DNA of 64,000 bases, taken from the NCBI GenBank assembly GCA_024398875.1, contig JAKSIJ010000006.1, positions 59,802-123,801 of the forward strand, in the 5' to 3' direction. Source of the stretch: Fibrobacter sp. Its GTDB lineage: Bacteria > Fibrobacterota > Fibrobacteria > Fibrobacterales > Fibrobacteraceae. Both the position numbers and the translations under genes were made by a program. Shown here piece by piece: positions 34,480 to 52,192 of this stretch (its first letter is position 1; each line of letters opens with the position of its first letter). The notes beneath the pieces were generated by a model, which saw only the letters and a list, made by a program, of their open reading frames with translations, was not told the origin of the DNA and ran no database searches.

Positions 34480-35337
34480 CTAGATAAAATTCAAGCGAAA
34501 CAAAAGTTCCACTTTTTGAGCGAAGTATGGCGACACAGAAACTTTCTGCCCTACCACCCTGATTTTAGGATTCCTCTGCAACTCCGCAGGCAATCGACAA
34601 GAATCCTTTTCAGTCATCCATACAGCATCTGCAAGCTCCATGGCGGAAATTACAGCTGCTGTAAATTTTGAGTCGTGGTCAGGACGTTGAATCACAGTCT
34701 GCACATCCACTCCAGCCTTCTTCAAATCCTCCACAAAGCGATCCGGATTTCCTAGCCCACAAACAACAGCATTTCTCGTCCGCTTATCTGCAATTTCAAC
34801 AGTTTCCAGTTCAAAAGAAACATCCCTCTCCGCACCGTAGCAGCGTGCAACCAAAGCCGGAGCCTCATGATCTTGCACCAAACTACGATGTTTCCCTAGC
34901 GGAATCAAATCTTTAAAAGACGTGGGCGGTTGCGACCAATCCAAACGGATAACTTTTGCCCCCACCAGGCGAGAATCCTCAAAGCCATCATCACAGATGA
35001 TGAAATCAAACAGTCTATCAATTTCATGCGCCGTTTTATACCGATTTTTTGTGGCAAATACCCGCACATTCGTGCAATCGTACAACTTCATTTTATACAA
35101 ATTAACTTCATCCCAAGCCTTGAAATGGCACAAAACCGCCACCTTGTAATTTGCAGGAATCCTCCGCACCAACCACAGACAAAAAGGTGTCTTTCCAGCG
35201 CCACCGACCAAAAAACTCCCAACCACAATTAGCTGGGCATGGGAAAGAGGCTTCCCCGATTTGAGGCAAAAATGATGATGAAGCAAATACCCAATCCTGT
35301 AGACCAGAGCTAGAAGGTATTTCAGGAATAGAGGCAC
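34480..35337 (-). CDS. lpxK: Tetraacyldisaccharide 4'-kinase
   Basis: IVVGSFLVGGAGKTP, DEVNL, IICDDGFED, LIPLGKHR, GLGNPDRF, PDH, MTEKD. Confidence 0.85.
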   Translation of the reverse strand: MPLFLKYLLALVYRIGYLLHHHFCLKSGKPLSHAQLIVVGSFLVGGAGKTPFCLWLVRRIPANYKVAVLCHFKAWDEVNLYKMKLYDCTNVRVFATKNRYKTAHEIDRLFDFIICDDGFEDSRLVGAKVIRLDWSQPPTSFKDLIPLGKHRSLVQDHEAPALVARCYGAERDVSFELETVEIADKRTRNAVVCGLGNPDRFVEDLKKAGVDVQTVIQRPDHDSKFTAAVISAMELADAVWMTEKDSCRLPAELQRNPKIRVVGQKVSVSPYFAQKVELLFRLNFI

Positions 35338-35346
35338 AACGCCCTC

Positions 35347-36426
35347 TTAGAGAGACTGACGCTTTTGCTGCAGATAGAGATCGGCTAGCACCAACGCCGC
35401 CATACTTTCTACAATCACTGGAGCGCGAACAGCCACACAGGGGTCATGACGTCCTTTCGCCAAAAGTTCCCCATTCTCACCATCCCGACTAGCGGTCTTT
35501 TGAGATTGGGCAATTGTAGCCGTCGGCTTGAAGGCGATGCGGCAGAAGATATTCTCTCCATTGCTGATGCCGCCTACAGAACCGCCCGCATTATTCGTGC
35601 GGGTATGGAAGGCGCCATCAAAGAAGATTTCGTCATTATGCTCGCTACCCTTCATGCGGGCAGCCGCAAAACCGCTTCCGATTTCAAAGCCCTTGCTTGC
35701 CGGAATGGAAAGCATAGCTTGAGCAAGAAGCGCATCCAGGCGATCAAAAACGGGTTCGCCCAAACCAGCGGGTACATTCTTCACCAGAAGGCTCACAACG
35801 CCACCAATGCTATCCGCATTCTTCTTGGCATCTAAAATAGCCGCTTCCATCCGGGCAGAAGCATCTTTGTCCGGGCAACGAACCGCAGAAGCCTCAATAG
35901 CCTCGCGAGAAATCGCATCCGTTGTCATTGCAGGGCAATCTACATCGCCTACGGAACTGACCCAAGCCAGAAATTCCGTTCCTGCAACTTTTTCCAGCAA
36001 TTTCCGTGCCACCGCACCTGCGGCCACGCGACCGATGGTTTCGCGGGCAGAACTGCGGCCACCACCGCGATAATCCCTGAACCCATACTTCAAATCGTAG
36101 CTCAAATCCGCATGGCTCGGGCGGTACCATTTTTGCACATCGCTGTAATCGGCGCTGAGCTGGTCCTCATTGAAAACCACAAAACTGATGGGAGTTCCCG
36201 TGGTCTTCCCTTCAAAAACGCCAGAAAGAATCTTCACCTGGTCTTTTTCATTCCGAGTCGTAGTCACAGCACCTTGACCGGGGCGGCGGCGGTCCAGAAA
36301 TTCCTGAACATCCGCTTCTGTTAGGGGAATCCCTGCAGGGCAACCATCCACAACGGCCCCAACAGCGGGACCATGAGATTCACCCCATGTGGTTACCGTA
36401 AATAATTTTCCAAAGGAGCTAGACAT
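35347..36426 (-). CDS. aroC: Chorismate synthase
   Basis: TTWGESHG, RRRPGQ, GKTTGTPI, RPSHAD, GGGRSSARET, GGISNGE, GRHDPCV. Confidence 0.98.
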   Translation of the reverse strand: MSSSFGKLFTVTTWGESHGPAVGAVVDGCPAGIPLTEADVQEFLDRRRPGQGAVTTTRNEKDQVKILSGVFEGKTTGTPISFVVFNEDQLSADYSDVQKWYRPSHADLSYDLKYGFRDYRGGGRSSARETIGRVAAGAVARKLLEKVAGTEFLAWVSSVGDVDCPAMTTDAISREAIEASAVRCPDKDASARMEAAILDAKKNADSIGGVVSLLVKNVPAGLGEPVFDRLDALLAQAMLSIPASKGFEIGSGFAAARMKGSEHNDEIFFDGAFHTRTNNAGGSVGGISNGENIFCRIAFKPTATIAQSQKTASRDGENGELLAKGRHDPCVAVRAPVIVESMAALVLADLYLQQKRQSL

Positions 36427-40653: not shown

Positions 40654-41205
40654 ATGCAGTTTGCCAGCTTGAAATCCCGAATTCTCCTGATTTTGGCCTC
40701 CCTCTGGGTCCGAAGCCTCAGAATCCGGCTCCACGCCCCAGCGGATTACCGCCCCGGAGTCCTGGGACTGTGGCATCGGGATTTGCTGGCCAGCACCGCC
40801 TGCTTCAAGAATAAAGACGTCCATGTGCTGATTTCGGAATCCAAGGATGGGGAATTTTTTGCGAAACTGGTTGCAAAACTTGGGTACAAAGTCACCCGAG
40901 GGTCCGACAGCCACGGCGCCCTCAACGTGCGGCACCTTCTGCGGACATTGAAAGAGGATGGGTTTGTGGGAATGGCCCTAGACGGCCCCCGCGGTCCGGC
41001 ACTTGAAGTCAAGCCCGGATCTTATTGGCTCGCTGAAACAGCAAACCGCCCCCTGTGGCTTATCGAGCCCCATTATGGGCCTCATTTTTCTCTAAAATCC
41101 TGGGATAAATTCATCGTTCCCTTGCCCCTGACAGCGATTGACATTCAAATTAAATATCTTTCGGACGTAGTTGAACATTCTAACCTAAAAGGAAAACAGC
41201 CGTGA
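40654..41205 (+). CDS. DUF374 / lysophospholipid acyltransferase-like protein
   Basis: WH, LISESKDGE, VTRGS, ALDGPRGP, LKSWDKFIVPLP. Confidence 0.82.
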   Translation: MQFASLKSRILLILASLWVRSLRIRLHAPADYRPGVLGLWHRDLLASTACFKNKDVHVLISESKDGEFFAKLVAKLGYKVTRGSDSHGALNVRHLLRTLKEDGFVGMALDGPRGPALEVKPGSYWLAETANRPLWLIEPHYGPHFSLKSWDKFIVPLPLTAIDIQIKYLSDVVEHSNLKGKQP

Positions 41206-41867
41206 TTGCAATGCCGCCTAAATTTGTCGCTTTTGACCTGGAAACGACTGGACTTGTTTGTGGAAAAGATGAAATTATCGAAATCGGTGCCGTGAAATTC
41301 ACCGTGGAAACCAAGGCCGGACGCGTGGTTCCCAAAATCGAGAAGGAATTCGAAACCTTCGTGAAGCCGAGCATGATGATTCCTGCCGAAGCTTCCAGCG
41401 TGAACCACATTACCGACGCCATGGTGGAAAACGCTCCTCTTCCGGGCGAAGCCATCAAGAACTTTGCAAACTTCTGCGGGCAGGGTTCCATCCTCCTCGC
41501 CCACAACGCCAATTTCGACTCCAGTTTTTTGCGGGATGCCTACAAGAAGAATCCGCAGTTCGTGCCCGGGAACCCCATCGTGGATAGCCTCGCCATCGCC
41601 CGCACCATTCTGCCGGAACTCACCGACGAAACGGGCAAGCACAACCACAAGCTGGGCTTTTTAGCCAACATGTTCAAGCGCCGGAATGAAATCGCCATGA
41701 GCATTGATTCCGACAAGATGCACCGTGCGGTCTATGACTGCGAAATGCTGATGGAAGTGTTTGTGGCGCTGCTCCGCCGCCGCCTGAAAGAGAAGGACTG
41801 GGAGATGGGGAGCATTATGCAGGCCATGGCCAAGTATAAAGGCATCCCACAGTTCCTGAACAAATAA
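41202..41867 (+). CDS. DEDDh 3'-5' exonuclease (DnaQ-like)
   Basis: FDLETTG, EIIEIGAV, AHNANFD, DSL, HRAVYD; GTG start overlapping the DUF374 stop. Confidence 0.92.
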   Translation: MIAMPPKFVAFDLETTGLVCGKDEIIEIGAVKFTVETKAGRVVPKIEKEFETFVKPSMMIPAEASSVNHITDAMVENAPLPGEAIKNFANFCGQGSILLAHNANFDSSFLRDAYKKNPQFVPGNPIVDSLAIARTILPELTDETGKHNHKLGFLANMFKRRNEIAMSIDSDKMHRAVYDCEMLMEVFVALLRRRLKEKDWEMGSIMQAMAKYKGIPQFLNK

Positions 41868-42190
41868 TGCAGAATGCTGAATGCGGAATGATGAATTAAT
41901 CGCGGGCAATGACGCGTCCGAGGCTTCTCATAATTCATACTTCGTAATTAATAATTTTTGGATTGCCGCGCTACGCTCGCAATGACGCTTACGAAGCAAT
42001 TCACAATTCAAAATTTAAAATTCAAAATTCACAATTATCTTATGAGAGTTCTTCGTCAGAAGCCTCTCGTACTTCATACTTCATAACTCATAATTTATAA
42101 TTAGTGCTTCGCACTCATTTTGACTTCGGCTCGGAAGCGCCCAAGCAAGCTTGGTCGTTTCACTCGCCTCGACAAAATTCATAATTACAT
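41866..42190. repeat. Modular intergenic repeat, copy B: four heptamer arrays interleaved with hairpin modules
   Basis: AATGCAG/AATGCTG/AATGCGG/AATGATG; CTCATAA/TTCATAC/TTCGTAA; AATTCAC/AATTCAA/AATTTAA; CTCGTAC/TTCATAC/TTCATAA arrays; REP-like GGATTGCCGCGCTACGCTCGCAATGAC; 43-bp module. Confidence 0.85.
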
Positions 42191-42400
42191 TATGGGCGTT
42201 GGTTCGTTACAGACTGTAACCCAGTATTCGCCCTCGCACCCAGAGACGCAGGACCCGTCGTGAATCTCCCTCCGGTCCAGTTTGATGACATTGGCATCAT
42301 TGCAGAGATTGCTTTTTGTCCGCTGCTCCGAATAGGTGTCCGGAGCGCAAGCCATAAAAAGACTGCATAAAATACACAAAACACCGCCATGCGTTAGCAT
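42185..42400 (-). CDS. Small Cys-rich putative lipoprotein (71 aa)
   Basis: MLTHGGVLCILCSLFMA-C lipobox and four further Cys; directly downstream of rpmB. Confidence 0.5.
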   Translation of the reverse strand: MLTHGGVLCILCSLFMACAPDTYSEQRTKSNLCNDANVIKLDRREIHDGSCVSGCEGEYWVTVCNEPTPIM

Positions 42401-42431
42401 AGCGGCTTTGCGAAAATTTCTATTGAAGAAA

Positions 42432-42653
42432 TTAGATGCCAAGTTCAGCAGCGACGGCCTGAATGCCACGCTTGCTGATGGTACGGAGACCAGCGGCACT
42501 GACGCGGAGGGTAACCCAGCGGTCTTCTTCAGGAATATAGAAACGCTTCTTCTGGAGGTTGGGAAGCTGCTTCATCAACTTCTTACGATTGGAGTGGGAA
42601 ACCATGTTACCCACGAGGCCGGCTTTTCCGGTGACTTCACAAATACGGCTCAT
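42432..42653 (-). CDS. rpmB: 50S ribosomal protein L28
   Basis: [39 protein letters not shown]. Confidence 0.97.
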
Positions 42654-42720
42654 AATAAACTCCGTTGTTTTTTATCGTGCCCAATTTTAGTTAAAACGGG
42701 CCTTTTTGTCAAGATGGGAA

Positions 42721-43653
42721 TCAATCTTGTAACTCTTTGGGCAGGTTAAACTTAGTCGATTCCACCAATTTTACGAAATTTTCGATTTCTATAGGCCCAA
42801 ATTTGACTTTGAGCCAGTCCACCACCTCTTGAACCAGCACCTCAGGTGCGCTGGCCCCACTGGAAAGTCCAACGGTCTCTATGCCATCGAACCAGGCCAT
42901 GTCCAGGTCTTCCACAGAGTCAATCAGGTGGCTCGGAATACCCTGTTCCTGCCCCAGTTCCATCAGACGGGAGGAATTGGAGGAGTTTTTGGCCCCCACC
43001 ACTAGGAGCATGTCCACCTTGCTACAGAGGTCCAGAACGGCAGACTGGCGGTTCCCGGTAGCATAGCAGAGGTCGCCAGCATCCGGACCGATAATTCCCG
43101 GGAACTTGGTCTTCAGAGCCTCGATAATCTTGCGGGTCTCGGCCACAGAAAGCGTGGTCTGGGTGATATAGGCCAGTTCCTTGCCTGCGGGAACCTGAAG
43201 ATTTTCCACATCGGTCTCGTTGCGGATGAGGGTGATGGAACCTTCCGGCAACTGGCCCAAGGTGCCTTCCACCTCGGCATGGCCCGCGTGCCCAATCAAA
43301 ATGATATGGCGCCCGGCGTTGTAGTGGCGCTTGGCGCTGTAATGGACCCGAAGCACTAGAGGGCAGCTGGCATCCAGAACTTTCAAATGGCGAGCTTCCG
43401 CATCCGCATAAATCTTCTCTGCCACACCATGGGCCGAGAAAATCACCACGGAACCTTCCGGAACCTCATCCACCTCGTCCACAAAAATCACGCCCTTGGA
43501 TTTCAGGGTCTCCACCACAAAACGGTTGTGCACAATTTCATGACGGACATAGATGGGCGTACCAAACTTTTCAATAGCCTTCTCCACCACATGGATGGCC
43601 CGGTCCACTCCGGCGCAAAAACCGCGGGGCGTTGCAAGAACCAGCTTTTTCAC
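42721..43653 (-). CDS. ispH: 4-hydroxy-3-methylbut-2-enyl diphosphate reductase
   Basis: PRGFCAGVDRAI, IVHN, FSAHGV, DASCPLV, GHAGHAEVEG, TQTT, CYATGNRQ, SSNSSRL. Confidence 0.98.
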   Translation of the reverse strand: MKKLVLATPRGFCAGVDRAIHVVEKAIEKFGTPIYVRHEIVHNRFVVETLKSKGVIFVDEVDEVPEGSVVIFSAHGVAEKIYADAEARHLKVLDASCPLVLRVHYSAKRHYNAGRHIILIGHAGHAEVEGTLGQLPEGSITLIRNETDVENLQVPAGKELAYITQTTLSVAETRKIIEALKTKFPGIIGPDAGDLCYATGNRQSAVLDLCSKVDMLLVVGAKNSSNSSRLMELGQEQGIPSHLIDSVEDLDMAWFDGIETVGLSSGASAPEVLVQEVVDWLKVKFGPIEIENFVKLVESTKFNLPKELQD

Positions 43654-44852
43654 TAGGCAACCCCTTCTGACTTCTGAAGCAGCTTTTTCAGGAATTCCAG
43701 CAGTTGGTGGTAGGAATCCTCGACCTTGGTGCGCTCGTGAGCAAGGAACGTACCCACCAGGCGAGTGTCCGCCATGTTCCGGCGGGAATAGCCCGCTGTG
43801 GACTGAAGCTGCGTAATGACGCCTTCACGAATGAGGGCGGAAACCGTTTCCTTCTGACCCCGAGCAAAAGGCCCGACGCAAGTGGCAACACCCATCTGGA
43901 GGGGTTCCCAGAAATCGTGAACCCCCAAACCACGACCGAAGGAGCCGCCAATCACTGCGGACTTGGAAGTGGCAAAGACATCCTTGGTGAGACCATACTG
44001 GCTCACGATGGAGACAGCGCCCTTCTGCACCAGGGGCCATTCCACCACTATGATTTCCTGGTCCTGGAGGGCCTTCCTGAATTCTGAAACCTCGGAAAGA
44101 CGGCGAGGCACCAGCACCACTGATTCCTGACGCTTGATGGAAGACACAATCATGCGGCAGAGGCTAACCCATTCCGAAATATGCATGGAGATGAATGCCG
44201 TATCCACCGTGGGATTTTCCGGAGCGGAGACTTCCTTGCCTGAGCGGACCCAAGGAAGAAGTTTCCAATCGCCACCAATCATCATGTGGGACAGGGCGGA
44301 CTTGGAAACCACCGATAGAAGTCTGGAAAGGTCGGCGCCTGTCTGCATGCAGGCAAAGCCTACGGCTGAGAAATCTATGCCCGGCAGGGAGCGGTAGTAA
44401 CGGCCAGAAACCAGAGCCACCGAGGGCTTGGTAGAAATGCTGCGCATGGTGGAAAGGTAACCCGGCCAGAGTTCATTTTCAGCGAGAATCAGACCCAATG
44501 GCTGCACCTTCTCCACAAAGTTCTTCATGGCGGCGGGCGTATCGGCGGGAGCGAGAGCGGCATCCACCTTGCCCTTGCCTGCATCTTGCAAAAAAGAAAG
44601 TACCTCCACCTTCTGGGTGGTGATGAGCATTTTCGGGCAAGCGGGCAGGTCTTCCTGAAGGAAGGTGGCCAGATTCAAGAGCATGCGGCATTCGCCGAGA
44701 CTTGCGCCATGGAGCCAGAGATAAGGACCCACCGGCCAGGGGCCATCCAAACGGTCTTTCACATGAAATTTGCTTTCCAGCACAGGCACCTTGGTAACGG
44801 CCTGCGCTGCGACTCCCGCCACCTGACGGGCAACATCCAGAAAATTAAACAT
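43653..44852 (-). CDS. waaA: 3-deoxy-D-manno-octulosonic acid (Kdo) transferase
   Basis: LWLHGASLGE, ENELWP, VLVPRR, IGGSF..HDFWEP..GP. Confidence 0.8.
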   Translation of the reverse strand: MFNFLDVARQVAGVAAQAVTKVPVLESKFHVKDRLDGPWPVGPYLWLHGASLGECRMLLNLATFLQEDLPACPKMLITTQKVEVLSFLQDAGKGKVDAALAPADTPAAMKNFVEKVQPLGLILAENELWPGYLSTMRSISTKPSVALVSGRYYRSLPGIDFSAVGFACMQTGADLSRLLSVVSKSALSHMMIGGDWKLLPWVRSGKEVSAPENPTVDTAFISMHISEWVSLCRMIVSSIKRQESVVLVPRRLSEVSEFRKALQDQEIIVVEWPLVQKGAVSIVSQYGLTKDVFATSKSAVIGGSFGRGLGVHDFWEPLQMGVATCVGPFARGQKETVSALIREGVITQLQSTAGYSRRNMADTRLVGTFLAHERTKVEDSYHQLLEFLKKLLQKSEGVA

Positions 44853-44854
44853 GA

Positions 44855-45529
44855 CTAACCTATATACAATTTCTTTAAATACAGCAATAAATTAAAAAAC
44901 AAGAGCCAGCCCCAGGTAGACCTATCTGCCAAAAAAGCAGCACAAAAGGAACGTTTGGGGGCAAATACAAGCGGATATTCCTTCTGGAGTGGCCGAATCT
45001 GCTTCTGCTTTTTATAAATCGCAATGCGGTTCAACGGAATCATGGGAGTCTCCCGAGCCCAGTTCCTCCACGTATCGCCAAACTTCCCTTCCAGAAAGCG
45101 GTCTTCCTCTCGAGCGAGAATCCACTCAAACGTAAAAACCGCCAATACGAAAGGAAAGGCCAAAAGATTCGGGCCCAAGGCAATAAAAATCGCGCCCACC
45201 GCCAAAAGAGTGTTGGAAAAATACAGCGGGTGCCTCGTATAGGCGTAGGGACCAACCATGACGAGTTCATCGGCTTCCAGCTTGTTCCCGCGGGAATGGG
45301 CACCAATGTACTGGCGGGCTTTAATGCGAAGTAGCGCTCCCGCCACATAAAGAGCAAGACCTATGCAATAAAATTCCATCTGGTCCAAGGACAAAGGCTG
45401 AAAAACTTCACCGGAGGGCAATAGAAATGCGGGTACTAAAAATTCGGGCAACGGCTGCCCCGGCACCGCAAGAAGCGCAAGCGCCAGAACGCCCAGAATG
45501 TAGCCGCGGAATTGGTACAACTTATTCAT
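44855..45529 (-). CDS. ICMT/PEMT-family membrane methyltransferase (LmtA-like candidate)
   Basis: GPYAYTRHPLYFSN, EEDRFLEGKFGDTWRNWARETP; start 45529 overlaps the ABC transporter stop. Confidence 0.75.
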   Translation of the reverse strand: MNKLYQFRGYILGVLALALLAVPGQPLPEFLVPAFLLPSGEVFQPLSLDQMEFYCIGLALYVAGALLRIKARQYIGAHSRGNKLEADELVMVGPYAYTRHPLYFSNTLLAVGAIFIALGPNLLAFPFVLAVFTFEWILAREEDRFLEGKFGDTWRNWARETPMIPLNRIAIYKKQKQIRPLQKEYPLVFAPKRSFCAAFLADRSTWGWLLFFNLLLYLKKLYIG

Positions 45530-47069
45530 GTTCCACATCCACAACCTGGAAGGTACTCTCCAGATTTTCGGGCAGGGCGTCGTGGCTGGACATGAGCACC
45601 CACTTTCCGGTGGCTGCAGCAGCCGCCAGAAATTCCTGCAGGATGGGGGCCCGATCGGCGAGGGCGATGGAGGCCAGCGGTTCGTCCAGCAGGACTACTT
45701 TTGCTTTGGAGGCGAGGGCCCACAAGAGGCCCATGCGGGAGCGCTCCCCGCCGGACAGGCCCGATTTTTCTAGCAGCGGCTTCGCGCCCGAGACCTCGAT
45801 AAAGCGGAGGACGGCGGGGGCGCAGTTTTTTTCTACGAGGGTGCGGAGAAGTTCCCGCGGCGGAAGTTCAAAATCCTGCGACATCATGAAAATGCCCGCG
45901 GCAAGGGCCTTAGACGGAAGGCGCATATCGCCCGAGTTCCATTCCTCAAGCCCTGCGATAAGCCGGAGGAGCGTTGTCTTGCCGGCACCATTTCGCCCGC
46001 GGAGAAGCACGGGGAGGTTTTCGTTCAAGGTAAAGTTCTGGCCCGAAAAGACGACCGCTGCCGACCCATCATAACCAAAAACGCCCTTCTCAATCTGAAG
46101 TCCCTCGCCCATTTTCACCTTGCAGGGATTTTTCTTGGGCACATCGCCAAAGCGAAGCAGCAGGCGGTAGGCGCTCATGGCGGAGCGGAACTGGGGAATC
46201 ACCCGGGCGCATTCCTTCACCGGTTTGTAACTGAGGAGCACTGCCGAGCAGAACAGCACCAGACCCTGGGCGTCCATCCAGCCTTTGGAAATGAGAAGCG
46301 CGCAAAAAGCTAGTACCACAACCATGGCCAGGACCGAAACCGTCTCCATCATGAGGGAGAGTCCGTTTTTCTGGATGGAAGCCTTGAGTCCCCGTTTGGC
46401 GAGATAGCGGATGGATTCCAATAGGTTGGAAGAAACGGCGGCACGTTCGAAGGGAGAACTCCAGTTTTTATAGAGACGGCGGGCACGGTTCAAATCGGTG
46501 CGGAATTTGGATTTTGCAAAAAGGAGCGTTTCCTCCTCGGGTCCAAGTTTGTGGAGTTTCCGCTGCATCCAGGCCACCAGAGGGACCACCACCACGAAAA
46601 GGAAAAGGGTCAATGGCCAGGAAATGAACAGAAGTACCGGCAGGAAAACCAAAAGCTGCAAAACCGCCTGGATTCCCTGGAAAAAAACGGTCCCGTTGGT
46701 TTGGAGGACTTGAGTCGCCTCAAAGGCGGATTCCACCTGGGCCTCTCCCTCCGGCAAATGGAAGAATCGGGGGGAAATGCTGCGCAGTGTCCGCAAAAAC
46801 CAGGCGGTGACGTTTGCTCCCGTGTTGAAAATCCAAGTTTCCGAAAGGCGGGTCTTACCGAGGAGAAGGGCCAGACGGATGGCAGAAAGGACCACCATGA
46901 TGAGGACCCATTGCCAAAGGGCGATGGGCGGCTCGCCAGACAAAAGCTCCATGAAGGAGCGGATTCCCCACAGCAAAGCGGCGTCTACGGCACTGGCCAG
47001 AAGGGCCACGGGCAGGAAGCGCAAAATGCCGCCACAAAGGGATTTTTTGAGCCATTTTCCTAAATTCAC
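45522..47069 (-). CDS. ABC exporter, fused permease-ATPase (MsbA-like, shortened)
   Basis: About 6 TM helices then GRNGAGKT, LSGGE, LLDEP, SSHD; first gene of the waaA operon. Confidence 0.75.
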   Translation of the reverse strand: MNLGKWLKKSLCGGILRFLPVALLASAVDAALLWGIRSFMELLSGEPPIALWQWVLIMVVLSAIRLALLLGKTRLSETWIFNTGANVTAWFLRTLRSISPRFFHLPEGEAQVESAFEATQVLQTNGTVFFQGIQAVLQLLVFLPVLLFISWPLTLFLFVVVVPLVAWMQRKLHKLGPEEETLLFAKSKFRTDLNRARRLYKNWSSPFERAAVSSNLLESIRYLAKRGLKASIQKNGLSLMMETVSVLAMVVVLAFCALLISKGWMDAQGLVLFCSAVLLSYKPVKECARVIPQFRSAMSAYRLLLRFGDVPKKNPCKVKMGEGLQIEKGVFGYDGSAAVVFSGQNFTLNENLPVLLRGRNGAGKTTLLRLIAGLEEWNSGDMRLPSKALAAGIFMMSQDFELPPRELLRTLVEKNCAPAVLRFIEVSGAKPLLEKSGLSGGERSRMGLLWALASKAKVVLLDEPLASIALADRAPILQEFLAAAAATGKWVLMSSHDALPENLESTFQVVDVEHE

Positions 47070-47145
47070 GCCTAAAATGTAAAAAATTTGAAGGGGGCCC
47101 CTTTACAAAACGACTTTCTTTCCTATATTTGGCCCTACACCAGAT

Positions 47146-47218
47146 GCCCCTATCGTCTAGTGGCCCAGGACTCGGGATTTTCATTCCCGCAACAGCAGTT
47201 CGAAACTGCTTGGGGGTA
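47146..47218 (+). tRNA. tRNA-Glu (TTC), CCA not encoded
   Basis: Cloverleaf with anticodon arm CGGGA-TTTTCAT-TCCCG and T arm AGCAG-TTCGAAA-CTGCT. Confidence 0.95.
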
Positions 47219-47222
47219 TAAT

Positions 47223-47255
47223 AAAAGAGGTACGTCGCAAGGCGTACCTCTTTTT
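47223..47255 (+). terminator. Intrinsic (probably bidirectional) terminator after tRNA-Glu
   Basis: AAAAGAGGTACG-TCGCAAGG-CGTACCTCTTTTT. Confidence 0.8.
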
Positions 47256-47297
47256 CGTAATGAATTAGTTTTGCCACTACACCACATATTCAGACAT

Positions 47298-48206
47298 TTA
47301 CAAAAGCCAAGAAACTGAGGCGGAACCAAAGAACAATCTTTCATTGAGCTGATCCCCGTTGATAACAGTAACGCCAACGCTATACTGCATAGTTTTGTGG
47401 AAATTGTATGTGACACCAAAGTAATTGGAGAAATAGAGCGGAAAATCAAAGGTGATTTGCGCTTCATTCTTATCATAACCTGTTGACCTTCCTGCCAATT
47501 CCTTCGTCAAAAACTGCGGAAAATGAATCATAGGAGCATAGATTAAAGCGACGGGGCCAAGAAATAAACTAGCAAAGGAGCCAATTCCAGCCCTTAAGTG
47601 GAGTTGATAATGATCATAGCTGTCTATAAAAGCTTCCGGCTCAGGCCAGGTTTGAATAAAAGGTTCCGAAGCCGATATACCCTCATAGCTGTATTTAGTG
47701 CTATTGTAGTCAACGCCTAAATATGCTGAAGCTCCAAGCTCGCCATAATTTCCGTTGATGCCAATGGTTGCCGTGCCATAAGGCATAAGGTCGAGTCCAA
47801 GCCCCAAAGAAACGAATTTCAATTTATGTTTTTCCAACATTTCTACTTGAACGCTTAGGGGACTTTCCTTAAAAATATAGGTCAGATCTGCGCGACCAGG
47901 GTTAATTTTTTCAGAATAATCATCTTTACTAGCATATCTTTCCCCATCCCGCACATACGCAGAGCCAGTCCAAACTTTTGACAGTTTCGTTTCCTTGCCT
48001 CCGTAACCATTGGTACTCAGGGACACTCTTTTGACTTTAGAATTCTCCTCCATCTTGAATTCGGCTCCACGAACAGGCTGCTGGAGAGTGACGTCAAACT
48101 CCCCTTCAATGACGCTCATCTTGTAGCTGGTGGTTGCACAGCCAACGAAAAGGCTGCACAACCCTATGCACGACATCAAGAAAATATGTAAAACAAATTG
48201 TTTCAC
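47298..48206 (-). CDS. Hypothetical lipoprotein, possible outer-membrane beta-strand protein
   Basis: FVG-C lipobox; Gly/aromatic-rich strands ending SVSWLL. Confidence 0.65.
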   Translation of the reverse strand: MKQFVLHIFLMSCIGLCSLFVGCATTSYKMSVIEGEFDVTLQQPVRGAEFKMEENSKVKRVSLSTNGYGGKETKLSKVWTGSAYVRDGERYASKDDYSEKINPGRADLTYIFKESPLSVQVEMLEKHKLKFVSLGLGLDLMPYGTATIGINGNYGELGASAYLGVDYNSTKYSYEGISASEPFIQTWPEPEAFIDSYDHYQLHLRAGIGSFASLFLGPVALIYAPMIHFPQFLTKELAGRSTGYDKNEAQITFDFPLYFSNYFGVTYNFHKTMQYSVGVTVINGDQLNERLFFGSASVSWLL

Positions 48207-50075
48207 TTAGAAATCCTTCACACAGACGATTGAAGTTTCTGCATTTTGGGGCCACACCGCACTTTGAAGTGTTCCCACCCCATTTTGACCCGTAAAAAAG
48301 ACCGCTATTTCAAGTTCTTCTACAACAGGTGTGCTAGTTTTATAGGAAACAGCTTCAATGGAAGTCGTATCAGTTTTAATCGCTCTAGCTTCTCCACGCT
48401 TAACCAAATTTGCATACGCTCCCCACTCATTCACGCTGGGAATGTGAAAACCATCGGGACATAATAATCTCTCCACATTTTCCCATTTTCCAGAACCTTT
48501 CCAAGCCAAAGCAGAATCGAGCCATATTTTATCTTCCAATACAATAACACCATATAGGTGGCTATCTTTGGTATTATAGACATATCTTATGTTTCTATAA
48601 TCCAGATTATTCTTATCTGGTCCAACATAAAACATTCCGTCCTTCATCTGCCCATACATTTCCCTGCTGGAAGAATCAGTTTCCTCCACAAAATAAGAAT
48701 ACCGCCCATCAGACTGATTAAGTTTCATCCACTGGTATGTTTTGTCGTTGTCAAAGCACCCATAAACTTCGGATTTATATTTCAAAATCTGTAGTGTATC
48801 ACTTTTACGGTTACACAGCTGACCAGTCCTAAACGCATAGGCATCTAATTCGCTTGACCAGTGCCACTCTCCAATCGGCCCCCAATAGATATTTGAAGGC
48901 TGTCCGCAAACCGCAATAGTGTCGTTATATTCGAACATTTGCCCATACTCAATATTAACACCACAAATTCCTATATCGTAATCCAGAAGGGAGGCATCCA
49001 TCCACTCATTACCTCTACAGTAGAAGTAGCGATCAAGGATTCTCTCCACCTGGTTGTCTTCACATTTCCCCAAAAGGTACTTGCGGTTTTCACGGTCATA
49101 TGAGCCCTCCACCCAACCGCTATCCTTGCAAATAAGGAACGAAGAGTCGGTCAATTCGTAAGTGAGATCTTTCCGATAGGTAGAACACAACGGCAGGGAG
49201 TCGTATGAGTCATTATACAATTTCCAGCCATAGCCTCTGTTGCATACTAGGATTGTCCCATAAAATTTGCTACTTTCATCAAAGATTGTATCTGCAAAAT
49301 AGTCGCTACTGCATGTATCAAAGCCATAGGCCTGTGTACATATACCATTGTAATTACCACAACCCATTTCCATATTTTCCAACACAAAATCAGCAATAGG
49401 AATTGTGCCCATTTTTAACTGCAATGATTCGCCGTAATCCTTCACGACTGCAGCAAACTTTTCCTCAAAATCAGCGTCTGACAAATATACTTGAAGCCAA
49501 ATGCCTAATTGATTCTCTACAACCGCTATGTAGTTGTAGGTACTATCTAAATCTTTCTGCGCAAGCCTATTAGCAATATAGTAGGGCAATCCCTCTTCCT
49601 TCACATAATGCAAAATACGGCTAGATTTGAATGCCTGCTCAAAATTAAGATCGAAATCTGCTGAATCCTGACCTATATCAACAATAATTTCCAGTTGTCC
49701 TGTGGTGACAAAATTGGAATTTTTCATCCACGAGCCAGATATGACGAATTTAACAAGGGGCGAATCATAGTCGGCAGCCCCAAATTGACAATTTAATCTC
49801 GCATCAGAAGTTTCGCAATTTGCGTTGTTTTTTAGAACCGGATTGAATAAAGAATCCAACTCATATAGACTTACAGAATCAGGTTTAAAGGTACAAACAC
49901 TAGTAAAATCCTTATGTTTGAAGGTTTCATTTAAGGCTCTCAGTGACAGCGGCCTATTTTCCAAAGAATAGAATGTTTCTAACCGACTATCCTTATCATC
50001 AATAAATTCAACACCATAGTCATCACTACAACTCCAAAACATTAGAAGCGATATGAATAAGAATATCCATCTCAT
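48207..50075 (-). CDS. Lipoprotein with a Fib_succ_major-like C-terminal domain and Cys/Trp repeats
   Basis: FWS-C lipobox; repeated (L/F)xC...W units; LCPDGFHIPSVNEW. Confidence 0.7.
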   Translation of the reverse strand: MRWIFLFISLLMFWSCSDDYGVEFIDDKDSRLETFYSLENRPLSLRALNETFKHKDFTSVCTFKPDSVSLYELDSLFNPVLKNNANCETSDARLNCQFGAADYDSPLVKFVISGSWMKNSNFVTTGQLEIIVDIGQDSADFDLNFEQAFKSSRILHYVKEEGLPYYIANRLAQKDLDSTYNYIAVVENQLGIWLQVYLSDADFEEKFAAVVKDYGESLQLKMGTIPIADFVLENMEMGCGNYNGICTQAYGFDTCSSDYFADTIFDESSKFYGTILVCNRGYGWKLYNDSYDSLPLCSTYRKDLTYELTDSSFLICKDSGWVEGSYDRENRKYLLGKCEDNQVERILDRYFYCRGNEWMDASLLDYDIGICGVNIEYGQMFEYNDTIAVCGQPSNIYWGPIGEWHWSSELDAYAFRTGQLCNRKSDTLQILKYKSEVYGCFDNDKTYQWMKLNQSDGRYSYFVEETDSSSREMYGQMKDGMFYVGPDKNNLDYRNIRYVYNTKDSHLYGVIVLEDKIWLDSALAWKGSGKWENVERLLCPDGFHIPSVNEWGAYANLVKRGEARAIKTDTTSIEAVSYKTSTPVVEELEIAVFFTGQNGVGTLQSAVWPQNAETSIVCVKDF

Positions 50076-50692
50076 AGATAAATCCTCACATCACAACGTT
50101 CCTCTGCATGCTGCACCGACATGCTTAACTTCATATCTTTCGACTTTATGTTCAAGTCAAAGAAATAGCTCACGCGTAGTTCACAATCGGTACCAAATTC
50201 CTCGGAATAGTACTCTCTATTGGGGATGGTGAATTCAAAGTCGTCCTTATCCAATTTATATACATAATCATACCCTTCATCATGGATAATAATGGATGTA
50301 GCATTTAGGCAATTCATATCCGTACAATCCACAATGTCCATCCAAAGTTTCCACCTACCACTTACATTAATCTCATACGAAAGATTGTTAACCTTCGAAT
50401 CGAACTTGCTGATAGAAACAAAAATCGGCGAAAGGGAGGAATCTTTAGACCTTTCTTTAAGAAGGATATTAGAAAAGGGGACATATCCAGAATAGAAGTG
50501 GCGATAATCTACAATGCTGTTGGAGTCCACCCTCTCCTTGTCATACTCAAGAATAAACGAGTCTAATTTGCTTAAGGATAAGTCACCAACTTTGAGGTAA
50601 GACATACCCAATGTTTCTGTTCCCCATTCATAGCCACACCCACAAATGCATAGCAAGACAAAAACAAGGATTATCTTCGGCAAGAATCGCAT
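50072..50692 (-). CDS. Hypothetical lipoprotein
   Basis: ICG-C lipobox; 4-bp overlap with the next gene. Confidence 0.65.
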   Translation of the reverse strand: MRFLPKIILVFVLLCICGCGYEWGTETLGMSYLKVGDLSLSKLDSFILEYDKERVDSNSIVDYRHFYSGYVPFSNILLKERSKDSSLSPIFVSISKFDSKVNNLSYEINVSGRWKLWMDIVDCTDMNCLNATSIIIHDEGYDYVYKLDKDDFEFTIPNREYYSEEFGTDCELRVSYFFDLNIKSKDMKLSMSVQHAEERCDVRIYL

Positions 50693-50827
50693 ACATGATA
50701 ATTCTAGTAAAATTTTTAGTTTATGGCGATGCCCCTTTGCTTACGACAAATTTTCAAACTATTTGTTTGGATTTCTACAAAAAATATGTATATTTATGTT
50801 TGGATTTTTACAAAATAGGACAAAAAT

Positions 50828-52192
50828 ATGTATTTTCAGCGCAATATCGACAAATTTCTGCTAGAATGGGCCAAATCAAAAGACCACAAACCTCTTTTAC
50901 TCCGCGGCGCACGCCAAGTCGGGAAATCTAGCGCGGTTGATCACCTGGGTAAAAAATTTGGAAATTGCGTAACCATAAACTTCGAAAGAAACCCGGAATA
51001 CAAAATCGCCTTCCAACAAAATTTGGATGTGGGCAGAATCGTTTCACAACTATCGGCTCTTAGTGGCATGCCTATTTCCCCAAAAAAGACTTTGCTTTTT
51101 CTGGATGAAATTCAGGAGTGTCCTGAAGCCATTATGTCGCTTCGATTTTTTTGGGAAGATTTACCGCAATTACATGTAATCGCAGCCGGCTCCCTTTTGG
51201 AATTTGCATTGCAGAGTCTTCCAACATTTGGTGTCGGGAGGATACATTCCATGTTCATGCATCCTATGACATTCGATGAATTTCTAATTGCCACCGGTAA
51301 TAAGCGCTTGTTAGAAGTGCGGCTTCAAGCGTCTTCCAAAGCACCGTTGCCAGATTCAATTCACAACAAACTAGTTGAATTATTCCGAACCTATATGATG
51401 GTGGGAGGCATGCCCGAAGCGGTCAAGAAATGGGTTGAGAGCAAGGACTACCTGCAATGTCAAGCCATACAAGACGACATTCTGATTACTTATGAAGATG
51501 ACTTTGCAAAATACAAATCGAAATGTGACCCTCAATTATTGCAGCTAACTTTTAGAAGCATTGCCCTGCAAATTGCAAACAAGTTCTCTCCAACAAAAGT
51601 CGGAAGCGGCTACAGAATAGAAAAAATAAAGAGCGCCGTTCAGTTACTGACGCAGGCAGGAATTGTCATTCCCGTAACACACTCCGATTCAAATGGTCTC
51701 CCCCTCGGTGGTGAAGCGAATCCAAGCTATCAGAAAATGCTCTTGCTTGATTCTGGGTTACAACTCCGATTGATGAATATGTCCCTAGGGAACGCTACTG
51801 CAACAGCCGCAGAAATTCTTACATCAAGTGTCGAAGATCTTGTAAACAAGGGTCCGCTCACAGAAATGCTTGCCGGACTGGAAATTTTGCGGAACAAAAC
51901 GCCGAACATGCGACACGAACTGTTTTATTGGAACCGTCAACAGAGAAATAGCTTAGCAGAGGTTGACTATGTTGACGCAAGAGCCGCAAAAGTCGCGCCC
52001 ATTGAAATTAAAGCTGGTAGTCAAGGTGGCATGAAAAGTCTTTGGATTATGATGCGAGAAAAAAATATTGCGAAAGCCTATCGCTGTTCCCTGGAAAACT
52101 TTGGTGAAATAAACTACACAGACAATCAAAGCGAAGGGGCTCTGAGGCATGTGGATATATACCCCCTCTACGCCATTTCGCAGATGCCGTAG
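50828..52192 (+). CDS. AAA_14 ATPase with DUF4143 domain
   Basis: PLLLRGARQVGKS, LFLDEIQE, AAGSLL, YMMVGGMPE, LLDSGL, WNRQQRNSLAEVDYV, PIEIKAG. Confidence 0.9.
   Translation: MYFQRNIDKFLLEWAKSKDHKPLLLRGARQVGKSSAVDHLGKKFGNCVTINFERNPEYKIAFQQNLDVGRIVSQLSALSGMPISPKKTLLFLDEIQECPEAIMSLRFFWEDLPQLHVIAAGSLLEFALQSLPTFGVGRIHSMFMHPMTFDEFLIATGNKRLLEVRLQASSKAPLPDSIHNKLVELFRTYMMVGGMPEAVKKWVESKDYLQCQAIQDDILITYEDDFAKYKSKCDPQLLQLTFRSIALQIANKFSPTKVGSGYRIEKIKSAVQLLTQAGIVIPVTHSDSNGLPLGGEANPSYQKMLLLDSGLQLRLMNMSLGNATATAAEILTSSVEDLVNKGPLTEMLAGLEILRNKTPNMRHELFYWNRQQRNSLAEVDYVDARAAKVAPIEIKAGSQGGMKSLWIMMREKNIAKAYRCSLENFGEINYTDNQSEGALRHVDIYPLYAISQMP

Follow-up and report, generated by a model that had tools for sequence, protein, structure and literature searches.

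A four-gene operon on the minus strand of a 64,000-nucleotide (nt) stretch of Fibrobacter sp. DNA (contig JAKSIJ010000006.1, positions 59,802 to 123,801; the whole stretch is called the window here) encodes, between an MsbA-like ATP-binding cassette (ABC) exporter and a WaaA-like transferase of 3-deoxy-D-manno-oct-2-ulosonic acid (Kdo), a 224-amino-acid (aa) integral membrane methyltransferase of the ICMT/PEMT superfamily. The explanation that we prefer, with confidence that is evenly balanced, is that this enzyme would methylate a nascent lipid A-type glycolipid at the cytoplasmic face of the membrane, before export, on an acceptor group that we infer. This explanation is built on gene order, translational coupling, motifs, purifying selection and the recurrent linkage of relatives to genes of lipid A or lipopolysaccharide (LPS) core synthesis, all of them directly observed, and on a fold taken from a model. 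For the Fibrobacter protein itself the argument rests mainly on gene context.

Genes of the operon (42721-47069) were called from open reading frame coordinates together with Pfam and NCBIfam profile scores, set against curated cutoffs. The first gene (45522..47069, minus strand) encodes a 515-aa MsbA-like ABC half-transporter with an exporter-type membrane domain and a compact ATPase domain. Its TAA stop lies within ATGAATAA, and the same ATGAATAA holds the ATG of the second gene (44855..45529, minus strand), that of the LmtA-like methyltransferase, giving an 8-nt overlap. A 2-nt gap (TAG tc ATG) separates the methyltransferase gene from the third, which encodes a 399-aa WaaA-like Kdo transferase (43653..44852, minus strand). 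The conserved unit ends with ispH (42721..43653, minus strand), encoding 4-hydroxy-3-methylbut-2-enyl diphosphate reductase, which overlaps waaA by 1 nt, is translationally coupled to it and is identified by its profile scores (Pfam LYTB, 310 bits; NCBIfam NF002188, 441 bits, over a cutoff of 420). The preliminary description of this DNA had reported three coupled genes with an 8-nt overlap and a 2-nt gap, an ICMT/PEMT-family enzyme between an MsbA-like exporter and a Kdo transferase, and lpxK (34480-35337) and a DUF374 gene (40654-41205) nearby. Its coordinates, junctions and gene calls are correct, since every junction was reproduced and Pfam agrees on all three operon genes and on both neighbours (LpxK 89.4 bits, DUF374 64.9 bits). 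A promoter and terminator scan of positions 41800-48400 gave counts not above those of shuffled sequence; the sigma-70 consensus is probably unfit for the phylum of Fibrobacter.

Very probably the 224-aa protein is an active membrane methyltransferase dependent on S-adenosylmethionine (SAM), because it combines an ICMT fold with aligned motifs and invariant residues. It passes two overlapping Pfam models, PEMT (PF04191, 34.1 bits against a cutoff of 25) and ICMT (PF04140, 30.2 against 24). When a profile of its family was compared with the PDB it matched Ma-ICMT (4a2n, E 1e-16), the RHPxY and EE..FL..FG motifs aligning residue for residue, and the AlphaFold2 model of the protein is all-helical (mean predicted local distance difference test score 88.8), with the ICMT structures 5v7p and 5vg9 as its top Foldseek matches (probability 1.0). 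Residues R99, P101, Y103, E142 and L146 are invariant in the alignment of 53-57 sequences; H100 is kept within Fibrobacter and is N in other clades. We take the RHPxY and EE motifs to line the cofactor pocket in Ma-ICMT, and by homology the cofactor site of the Fibrobacter protein would face the cytoplasm. The ratio of nonsynonymous to synonymous substitution rates (dN/dS) between the window and the Fibrobacter locus L001 is 0.126, and the gene is therefore under purifying selection.

Conservation of the operon was followed over nine Fibrobacter loci, five from genomes (L001-L005) and four from contigs encoding homologues of the methyltransferase (L025-L028). In all nine the order is msbA-like gene, ICMT-type gene, waaA and ispH, then rpmB, with overlapping stops and starts; the junction overlaps of L025, for example, are 14, 8 and 4 nt. 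The position of ispH is the same throughout, and this four-gene arrangement is beyond chance. The closest public sequence is the Fibrobacter sp. metagenome-assembled genome (MAG) Horse_feces19, with 96-99% aa identity over the operon, and not F. succinogenes S85. Identity of the methyltransferase over L001-L005 runs from 96% down to 37%. In the diverged Fibrobacter loci it is 37-47% identical to that of the window, against 50-56% for the ABC protein, 51-74% for WaaA and 84-86% for IspH, making it the fastest-evolving gene of the operon.

The strongest new line of evidence comes from the neighbourhoods of relatives in other lineages, whose loci were picked solely by similarity to the methyltransferase. 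Lipid A genes adjoin the homologue in 15 of the 16 non-Fibrobacter genome loci found at E <= 1e-9. A metagenome scan added 80 further loci, 37 of them at least 6 kb long, and in 22 of these 37 a recognisable lipid A gene is no more than about 6 kb away; by our own rough estimate a random gene would lie this near a lipid A gene in a few percent of cases. Six distinct gene orders were seen in total, Fibrobacter included. In MAGs of KSB1, Calditrichota and 'Cytophagia' the order, confirmed with Pfam, is a gnnA-like gene (Gfo-Idh-MocA), the ICMT homologue, lpxB, lpxJ (DUF374) and lpxK. Riflebacteria have lpxI, the gnnA-like gene (Gfo-Idh-MocA), the homologue, lpxB, msbA and lpxJ (DUF374), and a Limnochordia MAG has lpxC, fabZ, lpxA, the homologue, lpxI, lpxB and msbA, both likewise confirmed with Pfam. 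Another arrangement, from soil and peat metagenomes, runs in one direction through waaA, lpxK, an hldE kinase gene (PfkB-type), an adenylyltransferase gene (cytidylyltransferase-like), a GT9 heptosyltransferase gene, the homologue and a DUF3108 gene. It is exemplified by L106 (900-7337), with similar loci in L093, L094, L097, L098, L101, L114, L117-L119, L121 and L124, and places the homologue inside an LPS inner-core operon. Finally, one metagenome arrangement has msbA and lpxL followed at some remove by the homologue. A second genome scan, made with the lipid A-cluster alignment (pattern ADELVTxGPY), returned only contigs that were already known.

Two observations on these clusters deserve mention in their own right. 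The Gfo/Idh/MocA gene stands directly upstream of the ICMT homologue in L008 (4901-5842) and L009 (4721-5692), with equivalents in L010-L019 and L046-L054, and the products in L008 and L009 have UDP-GlcNAc 3-dehydrogenase NF040723 as their best match (201-253 bits, cutoff 450), hence the label GnnA-like. GnnA acts in synthesis of a diamino-sugar backbone. The lipid A of Leptospira has both a diamino-sugar backbone and a methyl phosphate (PMC10248169). The other observation concerns L018 (JAACEJ010000093.1, 3002-7537), which is binned as Actinomycetota and carries the full cluster of gnnA-like gene, ICMT homologue, lpxB, lpxJ and lpxK; at 67% identity, its homologue is as similar to that of the 'Cytophagia' MAG L009 as the Calditrichota and KSB1 homologues are, and the contig is probably mis-binned.

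Among named families the closest to the Fibrobacter enzyme is LmtA, the lipid A 1-phosphate methyltransferase of Leptospira (review PMC4402001), although membership at the equivalog level is not reached. LmtA_Leptospira (TIGR04571) is the top NCBIfam match (45.2 bits, E 9.5e-12), with an alignment that covers the core only (residues 50-189 on positions 46-190 of the 252-position model), and since the family cutoff, 325 bits, is far above this score, the protein does not count as an LmtA orthologue by that measure. The ICMT equivalog NF040696 gives 32.1 bits against 160. For another Fibrobacter homologue the LmtA model is again on top (49.5 bits, model positions 10-208), and so it is for every LPS-cluster relative tested (28-80 bits), always over the ICMT equivalog. 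Among the matches listed in the two homologue searches there was no Leptospira protein and none named LmtA. In a neighbour-joining tree with bootstrap, which did not include Leptospira LmtA, the clades are solid and deep nodes have less than 50% support, so that the tree speaks neither for nor against the Fibrobacter and lipid A-cluster clades being sisters; clade placement was for this reason taken from hhalign profile comparison. There the Fibrobacter profile is closest to the lipid A-cluster group K (score 143, E 3e-22), and the three lipid A-cluster groups K, R and Limnochordia score 110-143, against 35-37 for the true ICMTs Ma-ICMT and Tc-ICMT.

LmtA of Leptospira interrogans (Hinckley et al. 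2005, as presented in review PMC4402001) shares with the Fibrobacter protein the character of an ICMT/Ste14-like integral membrane protein, SAM-dependent by homology, and it acts on Kdo2-lipid A with cytosolic SAM (PMC4402001). A gene placed after the Kdo transferase step and before export, as the Fibrobacter gene is between waaA and the exporter gene, fits this substrate and this point of action; the Fibrobacter protein is the shorter, at 224 aa against a model of 252 positions. Fold and C-terminal motifs are common to the ICMTs (Ma-ICMT 4A2N, Tribolium ICMT 5V7P/5VG9 and yeast Ste14), whereas two other features, an N-terminal F/Y-x-x-R motif and an extension of the C-terminus with a final helix, match the LPS-cluster relatives instead. 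With the PEMT phospholipid N-methyltransferases (PF04191) the protein shares a pass of the broad model, which overlaps ICMT, but its locus has no visible context of phospholipid synthesis.

One large group of relatives, a clade of ICMT/PEMT proteins of about 245 aa, fits the LmtA model better than any other, at 85-108 bits and over nearly its full length; in all relatives tested, over a range of 28-108 bits, LmtA ranks above the ICMT equivalog. In L029 (6178-7756), L030 (6268-7726) and L031 (6170-7681) a class I SAM methyltransferase gene (Methyltransf_11/25) always stands directly before the gene of this clade, and in L030 the latter is followed by genes for an Rce1-like CPBP protease and LptF/G. 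We rejected the clade as evidence of lipid A linkage, because its genes are found paired with that of the class I methyltransferase, in the company of polysaccharide export genes or next to the CPBP protease gene.

The proteins encoded on either side of the methyltransferase are recognisable and divergent. The MsbA-like protein scores 68 bits with Pfam ABC_tran and 27.5 with ABC_membrane, just below the cutoff of 28, and stays under the MsbA equivalog cutoffs (TIGR02203, 73 of 602 bits; NF008381, 45 of 867). Its best PDB matches spanning the membrane domain are MsbA (8gk7 and 7met, E 3e-12, residues 75-385), hydrophobic segments are present, and so are all motifs (Walker A at 358, signature at 438, Walker B at 458, H-loop at 494); dN/dS against L001 is 0.043. 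This architecture is compatible with an exporter, and only its context suggests that the exporter would be a lipid A flippase. The WaaA-like protein carries Glycos_transf_N (PF04413, 65.2 bits) and reaches at most 66 bits with the NCBIfam WaaA equivalogs, whose cutoffs are at least 363. Its sole PDB sequence match is Aquifex WaaA (2xci, E 1e-13, residues 44-350), so that both the domain and full-length similarity are in place, and its dN/dS is 0.018.

Further lipid A genes lie elsewhere in the window. An LpxK-like tetraacyldisaccharide 4'-kinase of 285 aa (34480..35337, minus strand; Pfam LpxK, PF02606, 89.4 bits) scores 78.7 bits with TIGR00682, whose cutoff is 91.95, and its P-loop VGGAGKT aligns to Aquifex LpxK 4ehx. 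The gene starts 9 nt past the end of aroC, recognised by eye as a chorismate synthase gene, on the minus strand (34480-36426) and, lying 8 kb away, is separated from the msbA-like gene. In E. coli msbA and lpxK are paired. On the plus strand, a 183-aa protein of the DUF374 family (40654..41205; 64.9 bits against a threshold of 26.8) belongs with LpxJ, a characterised family of late lipid A acyltransferases (PMC6148475), and in other phyla the clusters that include an ICMT homologue have a DUF374 gene flanked by lpxB on one side and lpxK on the other. Downstream of this lpxJ-like gene of the window, and sharing 4 nt with it, is a gene for an RNase T-family 3'-5' exonuclease (41202-41867); the pair, an odd one, is on the strand opposite to the operon and is kept in all nine Fibrobacter loci. 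A tblastn search of the window with LpxA, LpxB, LpxC, LpxI and FabZ found none of them, and the other lpx genes would therefore be elsewhere in the genome.

Set beside the late lipid A genes of E. coli, those of Fibrobacter form the same functional set of exporter, Kdo transferase and 4'-kinase. They differ in that an LpxJ-type acyltransferase replaces LpxM, in that they are strongly divergent and below equivalog cutoffs, and in that the methyltransferase gene and ispH are inserted in the operon. The late proteins of Fibrobacter are also far more divergent than those of other ICMT-linked clusters (L008, L009, L021 and L106), where the same enzymes have canonical scores: Pfam LpxK gives 89 bits in the window against 283-338 elsewhere, and ABC_membrane 27 against 134-169. 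The shortening of LpxK and MsbA that the preliminary description had pointed out is real and modest, at 285 against 314-378 aa and 515 against 576-624 aa in other clusters. Such divergence suggests an altered substrate in the genus, whose end product may be a lipid A-like glycolipid of unusual type.

Putting these elements together, we propose the following sequence of events, in which we infer what the substrate is, which group accepts the methyl, how the steps follow one another and that the ABC protein acts as a flippase. At the cytoplasmic face of the inner membrane LpxK would phosphorylate the disaccharide, after which the WaaA-like enzyme would attach Kdo or a Kdo-like sugar and the LpxJ-like enzyme a late acyl chain. 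The methyltransferase, using cytosolic SAM, would then O-methylate an anionic group, the 1-phosphate if LmtA is the guide, and the co-translated MsbA-like exporter would flip the less charged product. The 1-phosphate specifically, named by analogy, takes roughly half of the confidence that we give to lipid A methylation as such; a 4'-phosphate or a Kdo carboxylate would be equally compatible with ICMT-type chemistry. The proposal in the preliminary description, a Kdo-lipid A with a methylated phosphate, thus survives in part. Gene identities, coupling, LmtA as closest family and the relatives in lipid A clusters all speak for it, and the match to LmtA itself falls short of the family cutoff (45 of 325 bits).

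A number of points weigh against methylation of lipid A. The 45-bit match to LmtA is weak, comparable in size to what the generic Pfam models PEMT and ICMT give, and the 245-aa clade, which has the highest LmtA scores, is not in lipid A clusters, so that likeness to LmtA alone is no predictor of a lipid A role. The neighbour-joining tree sets the Fibrobacter clade apart, with less than 50% bootstrap at its deep placement. Linkage counts overstate independence, because many loci come from few related lineages. With MsbA at 73 of 602 bits, WaaA at 66 of 363 and LpxK at 79 of 92, the substrate may be something other than classical Kdo-lipid A, and ispH in the operon could indicate one that is isoprenoid-linked. 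The operon sequence was present only in DNA metagenome runs, our search for transcript evidence finding no expression data. Lastly, F. succinogenes S85 is described as lipopolysaccharide-lacking in the title of Vinogradov et al. 2001 (cited in PMC4943182), and to the extent of that title the statement in the preliminary description that S85 was reported without classical LPS is borne out.

On this last point the literature holds evidence of another kind. The preliminary description had also named the upstream lpx genes as relevant to its proposal; homologues of LpxA, LpxB, LpxC and LpxD are listed for S85 (Antunes et al. 2016, Supplementary file 2), and LpxB protein was detected in S85 by Raut et al. 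2019 (PMC6851124), who extracted LPS-like material. The supplements of the S85 proteome list LpxB and do not list WaaA, LpxK or a protein named ICMT. A lipid A route that looks complete is thus present in the genus, as lpxA-D, lpxK, waaA, DUF374/lpxJ and an exporter are all encoded.

What else might the enzyme methylate? It could act on a different membrane lipid, be it a phospholipid head group (by N-methylation of the PEMT kind), a polyprenyl phosphate carrier or an unusual Fibrobacter surface glycolipid, in an operon that would then serve general envelope biogenesis. PEMT is nominally the top Pfam match (34.1 against 30.2 bits for ICMT), and the acceptors of the superfamily are varied, MddA-type S-methylation being a weak match for the relatives. 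The 245-aa clade occurs in contexts other than lipid A, and S85, LPS-lacking by the title cited above, has other glycolipids. Another pointer is ispH, an isoprenoid precursor gene translationally coupled in the operon genus-wide; however, it is not in the ICMT clusters of other lineages, where lpxB, lpxK, lpxJ, waaA and msbA are. No phospholipid synthesis gene adjoins the homologue in any locus examined, and profile comparison places the Fibrobacter proteins closest to the lipid A-cluster group. We regard another lipid as an unlikely acceptor, though one to be taken seriously.

Two further explanations would take the enzyme away from lipids or from catalysis. That it is a protein carboxyl methyltransferase of the ICMT/Ste14 type, acting on a lipidated or membrane-anchored C-terminus in a neighbourhood that is coincidental, would agree with its superfamily, with true ICMTs as its best matches among solved structures, and with the Rce1-like CPBP protease gene that adjoins one member of the 245-aa clade. 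We find it improbable, given an ICMT equivalog score (32 bits against a cutoff of 160) that is under the LmtA score, and hhalign scores of 35-37 with Ma-ICMT and Tc-ICMT against 110-143 with groups K, R and Limnochordia. The Pfam results for the scanned parts of the window and of the Fibrobacter loci contain no prenyltransferase or CAAX protease, and a lipid A linkage repeated in unrelated arrangements is hard to ascribe to coincidence. More improbable still, the protein would be a non-catalytic or accessory membrane subunit, perhaps partnering the ABC exporter, that kept the ICMT fold without methyl transfer. Coupling of its gene to that of the exporter would suit such a role, as would its rank as the fastest-evolving gene of the operon (37-47% across the genus against 84-86% for IspH). 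In other lineages, however, the gene is not next to an exporter gene, the residues of the RHPxY and EE motifs show little or no variation in any clade, and a dN/dS of 0.126 means constraint.

If the enzyme does methylate a lipid A-type glycolipid, the Fibrobacter gene would encode a divergent form of a known type of enzyme, set in surroundings that are both new and conserved; sequence comparison offers here a well-grounded, easily tested hypothesis on function. A methylated lipid A phosphate is not described outside Leptospira according to a 2023 survey (PMC10248169), and our search of the open literature, which is not proof of absence, did not turn up any account of a lipid A methyltransferase in organisms other than Leptospira, nor of LmtA-like or ICMT genes in lpx clusters. 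Related genes inside lipid A and LPS-core clusters of several lineages mean that methyl-capping of lipid A may be more widespread. We tentatively suggest, as a possibility that is on balance doubtful, that a broad, unannotated set of the ICMT superfamily regularly assists the synthesis of lipid A and of the LPS inner core in Fibrobacterota, KSB1, Calditrichota, Riflebacteria, diderm Limnochordia and a soil metagenome lineage. If so, capping of the lipid A phosphate or of the Kdo carboxylate would be a widespread route to a lower charge of the outer membrane and no peculiarity of Leptospira, and a candidate enzyme would have been named for a modification possibly common in uncultured and gut bacteria.

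For Fibrobacter in particular, a divergent lipid A of low charge could account for the failure of classical extraction to recover LPS from S85. It would give a handle on a discrepancy of more than 20 years, in which F. succinogenes is called LPS-lacking and yet its genome has lpxA-D, lpxK, waaA, lpxJ and an exporter gene. It would also bear on how a dominant fibre degrader of the rumen and hindgut presents or hides endotoxin. The charge of lipid A determines how cationic antimicrobial peptides and divalent cations bind to it and how TLR4/MD-2 recognises it; effects of methylation on TLR4 or on cationic peptides, as put forward in the preliminary description, are speculation.

The remaining window is ordinary Fibrobacter chromosome, with menaquinone genes, tgt, deaD and genes for Fib_succ_major-domain proteins. 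Positions 47298-52000 have a G+C content of about 0.41 against a window average of about 0.50, and include genes for a predicted lipoprotein without Pfam match (47298-48206) and a weak Fib_succ_major-domain protein (48207-50075) and a 206-aa open reading frame, then a gene for an AAA_14/DUF4143 ATPase; the region, which lies immediately upstream of the operon, may be a variable island of surface-protein genes. Farther along, positions 59437-61911 encode an 824-aa protein that joins lamin-tail, chitobiase C-terminal, Fn3-associated and CotH kinase domains, an unusual secreted architecture of the CotH type.

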